NCBI GenBank assembly: GCA_951406725.2
Contig: OX597817.1
Location: 152,706,001-152,770,000, forward strand
DNA from: Octopus vulgaris
Taxonomy: Eukaryota
Length of the DNA: 64,000 nucleotides
Reading direction: 5' to 3'
Of this stretch, positions 35,740-42,998 are shown piece by piece. Under the pieces are notes generated by a model. It was not told the DNA's origin. It saw only the letters and a list, made by a program, of their open reading frames with translations, and ran no database searches. Position numbers and translations under genes: made by a program. The first letter of the stretch is position 1; every line of letters starts with the position of its first letter.

Positions 35740-36462
35740 ATTATTATTATTATTATTATTATTATTATTATTATTATTATTATTATTATTATTATTGTTA
35801 TTATTATTATTAAGGCAGCGAGCTGGCAGAATCGTTAGCGCGCCGGGCGAAATGCTTAGCAGCATTTCGTTCGTCTTTATGTTCTGAGTTCAAATTGCGC
35901 CGAAGTTGACTTTGCCTCTCATTCTTTCGGGGTCGATGAATTAAGTACCAGTGAAACACTGGGGTCGATGTAATCGACCAGTCCCCTCCCCACAAATTTC
36001 AGGACTTGTGCTTTTAGTAGAAATCATCGTCATCATCGTCATCATCGTCATCGTCATCATCGTCATCATCATCATCATCATCATCATCATCATCATTATA
36101 ATTATAATAATTACTATTATTATTATTAAAAGGCGGCGAGCTGGCAGAATCGTTAGAACTCTGGGTAAAATGATGATCGGTATTTCGTCTGTCTTTACAT
36201 TCTTAGTTGAAATTCCGCCGAGGTCGACTTTGCCTTTCATCCTTTCGAGGTCGATTAAATAACTACCAGTTGCGCAATGGGGTCGATGAAATTGCCTAGC
36301 CTCCTCCCCCAAATTTCAGGACTTGTGCCTATAGTAGAAAGGATTATTATTGTTATTATTATTATTATTATTATTATTATTATTATTATTATTATTATTA
36401 TTATTATTATTATTATTATTATTATTATTATTATTATTATTATTATTATTATTATTATTATT
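35740..36462 (+). repeat. Left copy of direct duplication flanking the Tx1 element: (ATT)n - SINE B - (TCA)n - SINE B - (ATT)n
   Basis: Repeated at offset +6586 (ORFs 35941-36312 and 42527-42898 almost identical). Confidence 0.95.
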
Positions 36463-36695
36463 CCTTCCGACGCCGTTAGACGTACGTGAATCAGCTCCGT
36501 GAATTTGACACCAATTTCATTGGAAATCTATTAATAGGTTTGAATATTTTTTAATATTTCTGTAGCCAAACCGACCGGCTTCTTGCGGAGCTCGTCGGTT
36601 GGGCGAAATTTTGCCCCATTCGGGGTGAAATTGCGTTTGAAAATTTTGAACATTTGACATTTTTCAACATTTTGAATATTACAACAAGAAAAAAC

Positions 36696-38570
36696 ATGGC
36701 TATGAAGCGAACAGTTGGCTGTTCCTTCCTTCAAAATACACTCCCTCCGCAAACACGCACAACTCGTACAAAACACCCACTTCACGCCTTAAAAGGCAAC
36801 AAAGATTCTCCTTCCGAACCGCAGAGCACGCGCTCGGTTCAAAAGGAAAATGCAAGTCATGACGTCGCGTTCGACGTAATTCTTGATTTTCCCCCTCTGC
36901 CTTCACCCAATGCTTTGGTAAGGAAGGAGGAGGGAGAAAAAACAAATACAAAAATCATCACAAACATTGACACGGAGATAAAAGAAAAAACTTCCAACAA
37001 TTTTGCTTCTGCTGCGAAGCAAATTTCGGAGGAAGTTAAGATAACTCTAGAAGATGTGAAAAGAGCGAAGGAATTGTTAAGGAAGGATGGCAATGGTATC
37101 TTCCTCAATACTCCACAAGAGGTGATTGAAAGCACCAACAAGCAAACAATAATTTACAAAGTTTTCGACAGAAAACTAAAAAGAATAACAAATGCCACAC
37201 CCCAACAGTTGGAGATAGCTCTAAAGCCCATTTGGGCCCAAAAGAGCTACGTAACCAAGGGGAAGCGTTTTGGAACCGTGGAGGTTCGCTTCCCAACAGA
37301 GGAGCTGGCAAGGGCGAACGCCATTTCGCCCTTGCAAACTGAGAATTTGTTACTAATTCCAACCCACCTCGGGCGAAGAGTTACAAAAATAAAAATCGAC
37401 CTCGTCCCCCCTGAATTAAATATGTCATGGCTGGTGGCAGCTGTCCTCTATGATATAGAGGACACTACCACCATTCTAGATGTCAGGAGAGTGAGGGCGA
37501 AAAACTGGTTGGGGATGGGAGTGCTGCTTCTTGCGCAAATTCAGCAAGAGAATATAAGTAAAGTCCCTGATTTCGTAAGTTTGCCGGACGGCACTAGGCT
37601 AAACGTTGCTGTGGAGGGGCGAAAGCCAAAATGCTTTCTCTGCAGCAGCGAAAGCCACTTAAAGAGGGACTGTCCCATTCACAAAAAGAGGATGGAGGCT
37701 TTCAGCAAGAGGCAGCAGCAACAACAACAACAACAACAACAACAACAACAACAACAACAACACAAGCAACAACAACAGAAACAACAAAAACAGCAAGAAA
37801 CACCAAAGGCTGCCACACCACCAACACCATCACCAACACCAGCACCAAGACGAGCAACACCACCTCCAACAACAACAACCACCACCAAACCAACACCGAC
37901 AACCACCACCAAACCAACACCGACACCAGTACCTCGAAGGTCGACAGCAGCGACATCAACAGTAACAGGAGCAGCGGCACCACCGATACCGGTGGAACCA
38001 GAAACTTTTCGTCCTGCTACTGAAGCAGACCCCTCAACCATTCCTTTGCCGGATGAAGAGATCTCGGATTGTGCGAGCTCTGATTCCAACAAAGGAGAAT
38101 GGAGTATAGTGCCTCCAAAGAAGAAAAGGAGGAAGAAACAAAAAGATTTACAGGGGAAGCACGAACAAATAGTGCTTCCCAACATCAACAACAACAACAA
38201 CAACAACACACACTCACAACAACAAACAACAACAACACTTTCGACACCACTACTGCCACTGCCACACACACAAACACACACAGACACAATTACATCAATA
38301 AACACAAAGAACCAAAAACTAGTGGAGTACTTAAAAAACAAAACTAGTACAAATATAACCGATTTCATCATACCAACACAAAACACACCACCAGCACACA
38401 TTCTCACAATAAAAATAAATGCAAAATCATATGATGAAATCAAACAAATATTCCCTAACGATGTGGGATCGCTAGGGAAAAGTTTCTCGAAGAAACTTTA
38501 TAAAAACATTGTGGAAGCACCCGTGCAAAAGCACAAGGGAGCCACCCCCACCACCAACAACAGTAAGTAG
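36696..38570 (+). CDS. Tx1/L1 ORF1 (gag-like) protein with CCHC knuckle, poly-Q and Pro/Thr-rich linker
   Basis: Open frame from ATG 36696; KPKCFLCSSESHLKRDC (CX2CX4HX4C); basic cluster KKKRRKK. Confidence 0.85.
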   Translation: MAMKRTVGCSFLQNTLPPQTRTTRTKHPLHALKGNKDSPSEPQSTRSVQKENASHDVAFDVILDFPPLPSPNALVRKEEGEKTNTKIITNIDTEIKEKTSNNFASAAKQISEEVKITLEDVKRAKELLRKDGNGIFLNTPQEVIESTNKQTIIYKVFDRKLKRITNATPQQLEIALKPIWAQKSYVTKGKRFGTVEVRFPTEELARANAISPLQTENLLLIPTHLGRRVTKIKIDLVPPELNMSWLVAAVLYDIEDTTTILDVRRVRAKNWLGMGVLLLAQIQQENISKVPDFVSLPDGTRLNVAVEGRKPKCFLCSSESHLKRDCPIHKKRMEAFSKRQQQQQQQQQQQQQQQQHKQQQQKQQKQQETPKAATPPTPSPTPAPRRATPPPTTTTTTKPTPTTTTKPTPTPVPRRSTAATSTVTGAAAPPIPVEPETFRPATEADPSTIPLPDEEISDCASSDSNKGEWSIVPPKKKRRKKQKDLQGKHEQIVLPNINNNNNNNTHSQQQTTTTLSTPLLPLPHTQTHTDTITSINTKNQKLVEYLKNKTSTNITDFIIPTQNTPPAHILTIKINAKSYDEIKQIFPNDVGSLGKSFSKKLYKNIVEAPVQKHKGATPTTNNSK

Positions 38571-38608
38571 AGCCTTTTTTTCTCCTTTTTTTCCCCCTAC
38601 TTTGAGAC

Positions 38609-41600: not shown

Positions 41601-42042
41601 GCACGGAAGTGCCGTCAGCCGGGCCTGCCCGAGGTGTTGCCAGGACGACGAAACCGTTCTGCACGCACTCGTCCAGTGCCCGAGTATTGCTGAAATATGG
41701 GTTTATGTCGAACAGCTACTGTCACGTGTAGGACGGATCCGACTATCGGCCGAATCCATAGTGAAGATTGCCCCGCCGACCTCCTTTAACAAGGAGGGCG
41801 AGGCCGTTTTCTTGTGCCTAGTGGCTGTGGCGAAAGAGGTCGTGTGGTGGACTCGTTTAAAAGGGCTAAAGACAGACACTTTCCTCTTTGGTCAAAGCCT
41901 CATCAACTTTTTCAAGTTTCACTTGAAAAGGAAGATGAGGTTAGAGAGGAAAGTGCTGTCCGATAGCAAGTTTTATGAAAGGTGGGTGAATTGTGCGAGA
42001 CTGGCCTGTATAAATGGACCAGTTCTCAGGTTTCGCCTGTGA
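38609..42042 (+). pseudogene. Tx1/L1 ORF2 (APE endonuclease, RT, C-terminal CCHC) with one frameshift (~39090-39105) and one in-frame TGA (39706-39708)
   Basis: GCLNVRG, SET, YAP, GDWN, SYLDRV, TDH, WKLN, SPGLDG, FRPITLLN, DQSKAFDRV, RQGCPLS, YADD, GGLG, CPRC..ETVLHALVQC. Confidence 0.92.
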
Positions 42043-42325
42043 TTTCAAAGAAAAAGGTAATGTAAAAGGAGAAGAAAGGGGACTCTCTACACCCCCTTTT
42101 TTTGACCAGGCTCCCGTTGGCTTTTGTAGGGTTTTTTCCACCGGGAACATTTCGAGACGTCTCCCCCTTTTGGGAGTTTTTCATTGTTTTAATAATCATT
42201 GTTTTAAAGTTTTTTTTTACACGGATTTTTTAACAAACGGACAAAACCCTTTGTAACCTTTCGTCCTGTCCTGTCCCTTTATGTAATCATGCGTGTCAGC
42301 CCTTGTGGCCAATAAAAAAGAATTG

Positions 42326-42998
42326 ATTATTATTATTATTATTATTATTATTATTATTATTATTATTATTATTATTATTATTGTTATTATTATTATTAAG
42401 GCAGCGAGGTGGCAGAATCGTTAGCGCGCCGGGCGAAATGCTTAGCAGCATTTCGTTCGTCTTTATGTTCTGAGTTCAAATTGCGCCGAAGTTGACTTTG
42501 CCTCTCATTCTTTCGGGGTCGATGAATTAAGTACCAGTGAAACACTGGGGTCGATGTAATCGACCAGTCCCCTCCCCACAAATTTCAGGACTTGTGCTTT
42601 TAGTAGAAATCATCGTCATCATCGTCATCATCGTCATCGTCATCATCATCATCATCATCATCATCATCATCATCATCATCATTATAATTATAATAATTAC
42701 TATTATTATTATTAAAAGGCGGCGAGCTGGCAGAATCGTTAGAACTCTGGGTAAAATGATGATCGGTATTTCGTCTGTCTTTACATTCTTAGTTGAAATT
42801 CCGCCGAGGTCGACTTTGCCTTTCATCCTTTCGAGGTCGATTAAATAACTACCAGTTGCGCAATGGGGTCGATGAAATTGCCTAGCCTCCTCCCCCAAAT
42901 TTCAGGACTTGTGCCTATAGTAGAAAGGATTATTATTGTTATTATTATTATTATTATTATTATTATTATTATTATTATTATTATTATTATTATTATTA
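42326..42998 (+). repeat. Right copy of the direct duplication flanking the Tx1 element
   Basis: Same SINE B pair and microsatellite interruptions as 35740-36462; GCGAGGTGG versus GCGAGCTGG is one of very few differences. Confidence 0.95.

Follow-up and report, generated by a model that had tools for sequence, protein, structure and literature searches.

A Tx1-type retrotransposon in Octopus vulgaris lies between two nearly identical copies of a block of host DNA, and we put at about even odds (a probability near 0.5) that its insertion itself made the second copy in a one-off event that was primed in one (ATT)n tract and resolved in the one that follows. The element, a non-LTR (lacking long terminal repeats) retrotransposon of 5,863 bp, occupies positions 36463-42325 (plus strand) of the window, by which we mean the whole stretch of 64,000 nucleotides analysed here (assembly GCA_951406725.2, contig OX597817.1, forward-strand positions 152,706,001 to 152,770,000); all coordinates are those of the window.

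A 674-bp direct repeat abuts both ends of the element

Diagonal comparison, BLAST and reading of the tracts placed the left copy of the block at 35740-36413 and the right copy at 42326-42999 (both plus strand). They form an ungapped direct repeat of 674 bp at an offset of 6586, with two mismatches (99.7% identity by BLAST), which bears out the first-pass annotation of this DNA, where (ATT)n-SINE-SINE-(ATT)n blocks flanking a Tx1 element had been read as lying 6586 bp apart with about two substitutions. The mismatches are C at 35823 against G at 42409 and G at 36062 against A at 42648, the latter at a CpG within an ATC tract. With 22 near-identical direct repeats of at least 55 bp in all, this block is the longest in the window, and none of the others exceeds 222 bp.

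In the left copy, two short interspersed nuclear elements (SINEs), probably of an octopus type, stand in tandem on the plus strand: S1 (35813-36022), with an A-box-like motif at 35824 and a B-box-like motif at 35886, and S2 (36130-36342), which is 80% alike to S1 and has an A-box-like motif. Between them lies an ATC/GTC tract with a short ATT run (36023-36129, plus strand) of equal total length in both copies, and 13 relatives of S1 and S2 occur elsewhere in the window. The upstream tract, T1 (35699-35812, plus strand), has an imperfect start followed by (ATT)26 GTT (ATT)4 and is the putative site of the priming nick; the downstream tract, T3 (36343-36462, plus strand), reads (ATT)3 GTT (ATT)36 and adjoins the 5' end of the element. 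The right copy repeats this order as T1' (42326-42398, (ATT)19 GTT (ATT)4), S1' (42399-42608), S2' (42716-42928) and T3' (42929-42999, (ATT)3 GTT (ATT)19 AT), so that T3 exceeds T3' by 17 pure units (36 versus 19). As the GTT interruptions of both tracts are present in both copies, the copied block measures between ~560 and ~675 bp. The repeat abuts both ends of the element, its exact breakpoints being blurred within the ATT repeats. The window contains no N, and it is at the level of the assembled sequence that the duplication is confirmed. To the right follows an older interspersed repeat (43000-43430, minus strand) that ends in the (AAT)n of T3' and is 72-76% alike to 17871-18387 and 55815-56293.

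A proposed single insertion spanning two neighbouring (ATT)n tracts

In target-primed reverse transcription of a plus-strand long interspersed nuclear element (LINE), the target-site duplication (TSD) has a right copy that begins at the priming nick and a left copy that ends at the 5' junction, a geometry by which the first nick falls in T1 and that junction in T3. The endonuclease would have nicked the bottom strand within T1, where reverse transcription would have been primed, and the far end of the cDNA, instead of being joined the usual ~18 bp away, would have been joined 0.56-0.67 kb downstream in the (ATT)n tract that follows, with ATT/AAT pairing, at a distant nick or else on the sister chromatid, as the probable means. 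The two SINEs would then have been copied by fill-in or break-induced synthesis, and the extra ATT units at the 5' junction might come from the donor flank, from slippage or from later growth of the tract. We infer all of these steps from the final arrangement, in which the right copy starts at the last base of the element, the left copy reaches its first, and T1' is a suffix of T1 with the GTT marker included; a single event would be enough to produce it. Runs of at least four ATT units cover 69 of 1001 bp and 81 of 2001 bp downstream. As ATT runs thus make up only 4-7% of the next 1-2 kb, the second breakpoint was probably guided by the repeat, and a chance position is unlikely.

The element likely belongs to Tx1 and resembles SINEs of the window at its 3' end

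The element has both open reading frames (ORFs) and both untranslated regions. ORF1 (36696-38570, plus strand) is open over 624 aa and has one CCHC knuckle and a Q/T/P-rich middle; CX2CX4HX4C is visible in its translation, with the Pfam zf-CCHC match below cut-off (E 0.085). ORF2 (38609-42042, plus strand) encodes an APE endonuclease (Exo_endo_phos, 2.5e-13), a reverse transcriptase (RT; RVT_1, 1.1e-30) and zf-RVT (8.9e-9), and is broken twice, its reading frame shifting near 39095 and meeting a stop at 39706-39708. Neither these breaks nor the extra units of T3 figure in the first-pass annotation. Its best PDB match was human L1 ORF2p (2e-43; R2, 1e-23), and ESM Atlas returned RVT_1 and zf-RVT for the element protein again, with nothing further. 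With its APE, RT and C-terminal zinc finger, ORF2 fits the L1/Tx1 group. The element matches at 39% two proteins that bear the name 'Transposon TX1 uncharacterized 149 kDa protein' (E 4e-61 and 2e-58); among named homologs the closest comes from Argonauta hians (68%), in keeping with a probable octopod host. To judge by the names of the matched proteins, the element likely belongs to Tx1. According to the available part of PMC13282606, 13 L1-Tx1 families with 421 insertions have recently been active in O. vulgaris. We rejected an LTR retrotransposon, as the repeats consist of host SINEs and microsatellites and Pfam gives only APE, RT and zinc fingers. Rfam yielded 12 matches on 35400-44400, every one under the gathering score. 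An old fragment of the same Tx1 lineage (54889-55764, minus strand; 71-76% DNA identity) is split by a SINE and adjoins the repeat that also makes up the right flank from 43000.

At its 3' end (42299-42316, plus strand), the element has a predicted 3-bp stem with a 5-nt loop (42299-42309) followed by AATAAA (42311-42316), and no poly(A). The hairpin appeared in four of six minimum-energy folds, with fold energies not beyond those of shuffles (z-scores +1.57 to -1.65), and is a lead only. We aligned eight SINE tails from the window to the element, in 32 comparisons chosen after the likeness had been seen. For five of the eight, the best match was the last ~75 nt of the element. Against its last 85 nt, none of 500 shuffles reached the score of tails 59091, 43662 (minus strand) and 3857 (minus strand), whereas 13 did so for 60583, 17 for 59274, 35 for S1, 38 for S2 and 78 for 60343. 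The S1 and S2 tails match the 3' ends of three Tx1-type relatives, L010, L002 and L001 (0-1 of 500 shuffles), which are described below. Together, these likenesses suggest that Tx1 elements are the partner LINEs that mobilise these SINEs. The common 3' tails would offer thousands of insertion sites at which the target and TSD length of the machinery could be measured. A cephalopod SINE-Tx1 tail pair was not found in the literature searched, which is weak evidence of absence as most subscription papers and Repbase reports lay outside reach; the available parts of PMC2861651, PMC4838377 and PMC3747384 hold neither an octopus SINE-Tx1 pair nor the R9 TSD size considered below. One SINE type (59091-59521; 43431-43645 and 3690-3857, both minus strand) resembles the last ~75 nt of the element. 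Most SINE tails and Tx1 ends have in common a loop of 5 nt on a short predicted stem, in which one type has the swapped pairs of another.

The usual TSD of the lineage appears to be about 18 bp

The SINE at 59091-59503 is bounded by an exact 18-bp TSD (59072-59089 and 59504-59521) in an A/T-rich, non-(ATT)n site, and an exact stretch of at least 25 bp common to its 1.5-kb flanks was not found. A genome scan for relatives of the element gave 17 loci (L001-L017; 31 of 61 candidate stretches) with RT identities of 42-44%, ORF1 23-28% alike to that of the octopus element and an ORF2 that is mostly open. In L010, one ~18-bp word recurs, with up to three differences, on the left of two copies, between them and on their right, and is, to judge from the sequence, an ordinary TSD. 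These two sites serve here as a proxy for the family's own copies. By this proxy, the octopus element is unlike Dualen or R9 and falls outside the families in which a long TSD is the norm.

The first-pass annotation had proposed a microsatellite-specific endonuclease, which is unsupported, given the placement of a SINE with an element-like tail (59091) in a non-(ATT)n site. At least four ATT/GTT units lie upstream of four of the eight SINE copies with intact 5' ends, and a leaning of insertions towards ATT runs is plausible. By the definition in the available part of PMC4494074, repeat specificity means a given repeat at >20% of family flanks; the octopus family is represented here by one copy. 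A routine duplication of local DNA, which had also been envisaged, is likewise unsupported, given the ~18-bp default at SINE 59091 and L010. That this Tx1 family recurrently begins in one (ATT)n tract and ends in the next, and so forms, in a genome dense with these tracts, a standing germline source of LTR-like duplications of 0.1-2 kb, we regard as unlikely.

The SINE at 59072-59521 contains an internal 184-bp tandem second unit, all of it enclosed by the exact 18-bp TSD. The 17 related loci lie on contigs from a single genome bin that carries the label uncultured Arenicella sp.; evidently this is DNA of an animal host that was assigned to a bacterium. They hold Tx1-type elements of 6.4-6.9 kb in head-to-tail arrays, from several families and 90-99.9% alike within arrays. 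No Rfam match was found in the five of 17 loci checked for it, and no tRNA in the eight of 17 checked. Protein-pattern scans recovered relatives in none of 44 candidate stretches of metagenome contigs and none of 47 of viral contigs. The 20-base 3'-end motif had two matches in metagenome contigs, both by chance.

Sequencing runs point to a young, multi-copy family

Part of 34800-44400 was contained in 20 of 24 listed runs, the best of which held 0.70 of the sampled words. Four of the 24 were aligned to 36400-44200, a region that includes a single block copy, with repeats skipped in the alignment. The raw runs X21-X23 gave 2, 19 and 0 aligned reads, none on the element body, and X23 with its 0 reads is no test. 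No row covered either block mismatch in the four aligned runs. Among the X1 contigs, an exact piece from the 5' part of the element (36802-36909, 108 bp) had a depth of 1366.7 and an exact piece of the right flank (44010-44200) a depth of 66.6. This ~20-fold excess, a rough figure from single contigs, indicates that the family is young and multi-copy in X1; depth over the block was swamped by other SINE copies and was left out, as were the word shares of the runs outside these four. The frameshift near 39095 lies in a G run in which four X1 contigs have one extra letter, so it is either private to this copy or an assembly error. From the divergence of the block copies (0.30%, 95% Poisson interval 0.04-1.07%), 8.7 (1.1-31) private changes are predicted in the element, and the ages are thus compatible with the two ORF2 breaks seen.

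Alternative origins of the duplication

All rival explanations yield the same final sequence as duplication by the insertion itself, and several observations weigh against the latter. The locus is a single one, and neither an empty allele nor a second flanked copy of the family is among the data seen. A junction-bridging read or contig was not found in the four aligned runs, in which repeats were skipped. The default TSD of the lineage appears to be ~18 bp, by proxy from two sites rather than from the family's own copies. Elsewhere in the window (11817-12837), a ~1-kb palindrome and duplications of 132 and 61 bp with (TA)n at their bounds occur where no Tx1 piece was found, which shows that tract-bounded duplication, real or assembly-born, can arise without such an element. 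Finally, two clean nicks predict a T3 no longer than T3', so that the observed 36 versus 19 units require later or added repeats. Of the proposal in the first-pass annotation, that nicks in two tracts created a giant TSD, the geometry and the position of the second breakpoint in an ATT run fit, and the plain two-nick form is at odds with the length of T3. As pure tracts change length fast, this excess does not refute duplication by the insertion; it favours a junction made through ATT/AAT pairing, in which units were added, either at a distant nick or, by way of break-induced copying, on the sister chromatid.

A false duplication in the assembly, in which two haplotypes, one empty and one carrying the element in T1 or T3 by ordinary insertion, were strung together at the ATT tracts, strikes us as rather unlikely. 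The two differences in 674 bp and the unequal tract lengths could be allelic or residual errors; G runs are places where long-read consensus errs, and the ORF2 frameshift falls in just such a run, where the four X1 contigs have one more letter; the palindrome with internal tandem copies at 11817-12837 could be assembly-born too; no read bridges the locus, and the best run contains only 0.70 of the sampled words. However, the lack of any N in a microsatellite-rich 64 kb suggests long-read contigs, which are able to span 7.3 kb and would not normally be joined on overlaps of 70-120 bp, and the palindrome near 11.8 kb, with four mismatches and unequal tracts, looks more like an aged real event. 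The block might instead have been duplicated beforehand, if T1 and T3 underwent unequal exchange or template switching that left one long hybrid ATT tract, into which the element later inserted in the ordinary way with a TSD of ~18 bp hidden in the repeat. Such a history accounts for both breakpoints without special chemistry, agrees with the default TSD and has precedent in the tract-bounded duplications of the window that lack this element. It nevertheless requires two rare events at the same spot within ~0.3% divergence, and none of the window's other long ATT/AAT runs borders a young duplication of similar size; we hold it to be unlikely. Most improbable in our judgement is that two family members inserted independently, into T3 of one allele and T1 of another, and then underwent crossover (or, in a variant, that a 3'-transduced copy re-inserted into the allelic site), so that a chimeric element came to lie between two copies of the block. 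The family is multi-copy, relatives L001-L017 insert repeatedly at one target in head-to-tail arrays, and the two block differences would then be allelic; but two insertions at most 0.6 kb apart would have to segregate together, and the element bears no mosaic sign, in a table of read differences that is incomplete.

Comparison with known long duplications

Large TSDs are an already published outcome of LINE insertion, to which the octopus locus adds one example; statements on the papers cited in this section refer to their available parts. Human mobile-element TSDs are mostly 10-20 bp (PMC12350158), in agreement with the ordinary length of ~7-20 bp assumed in the first-pass annotation. L1 insertions in HeLa cells have TSDs >100 bp in up to 10% of cases, and the median L1 TSD reaches 1495 bp in cells deficient in nucleotide excision repair (PMC5223499). 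Duplications of 1-10 kb at L1 sites have been seen as large TSDs and ascribed to break-induced replication (10.1101/2024.12.14.628481), and an L1-bridged duplication of 22.6 Mb arose via the sister chromatid (PMC7058536). The octopus locus thus resembles human L1 in that a LINE with APE and RT stands between direct copies of a 0.1-10 kb target as a minority outcome, for which a distant second nick or break-induced replication has been proposed. Whereas the human cases come from cultured or tumour cells, with no mention of microsatellites at both breakpoints in the text available, the octopus case comes from an invertebrate assembly and concerns a Tx1-type element that lacks poly(A) and has both ends in (ATT)n.

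In Chlamydomonas reinhardtii, Dualen-4b_cRei has duplications at over half of its insertions (median 900 bp; PMC9977147), and these are likewise heritable LINE insertions with flanking duplications of similar size. There, however, the duplications are a family-level habit ascribed to dual endonucleases, APE and a restriction-like endonuclease (RLE), whereas only APE was found in the octopus element and its lineage default is ~18 bp. R9 of bdelloid rotifers, a target-specific LINE, likewise has an unusually long TSD (126 bp, as cited in PMC9977147), but it is R2-type, targets ribosomal DNA and has one stated length, five times shorter than the octopus block. Tx1 families with microsatellite targets, Kibi in (TC)n, Koshi in (TTC)n and crocodilian families in (TTCC)n/(TTTC)n (PMC4494074), likewise have the same simple repeat on both sides; the octopus repeat unit, ATT, is known from one copy, and for none of these families does the available text mention a long TSD. 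A large TSD with both ends in microsatellites was not found in the literature searched, which is weak evidence of absence given that subscription papers and Repbase reports were mostly out of reach.

Second-strand cutting and joining in LINE insertion are still poorly defined (PMC5223499). The octopus locus, if real, would be a natural invertebrate case in which the 5' junction formed hundreds of bases off, in another copy of the target repeat, and would point to repeat pairing rather than to a fixed spacing of nicks. It would matter more if a genome-wide excess of tract-to-tract duplications were present around family copies. Recurrent duplications of this kind would copy SINEs and could copy exons or regulatory DNA. 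Loci of this kind also mimic LTR pairs and can mislead LTR finders.

Other features of the window

The ~1-kb palindrome at 11817-12837 has four mismatches and is centred on (TA)n tracts; inside it lie the tandem copies of 132 and 61 bp that (TA)n bounds. Templates switched in series, or an artefact of assembly, may account for it. The LINE fragments at 2657-3642, 27413-28090 (minus strand) and 56488-57222 are truncated and of a different kind, to the eye R2/R4-like, the first of them lying between (AAT)n tracts, and the direct-repeat scan of the window showed no long flanking duplication at any of the three. Open frames at 8771-9352 (minus strand) and 29472-29969 (plus strand) look by eye like remnants of DNA transposases. 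A degenerate tandem array of 60-bp and 43-bp units (48890-49389; 70-75% matches) is unlike the simple repeats that surround it.

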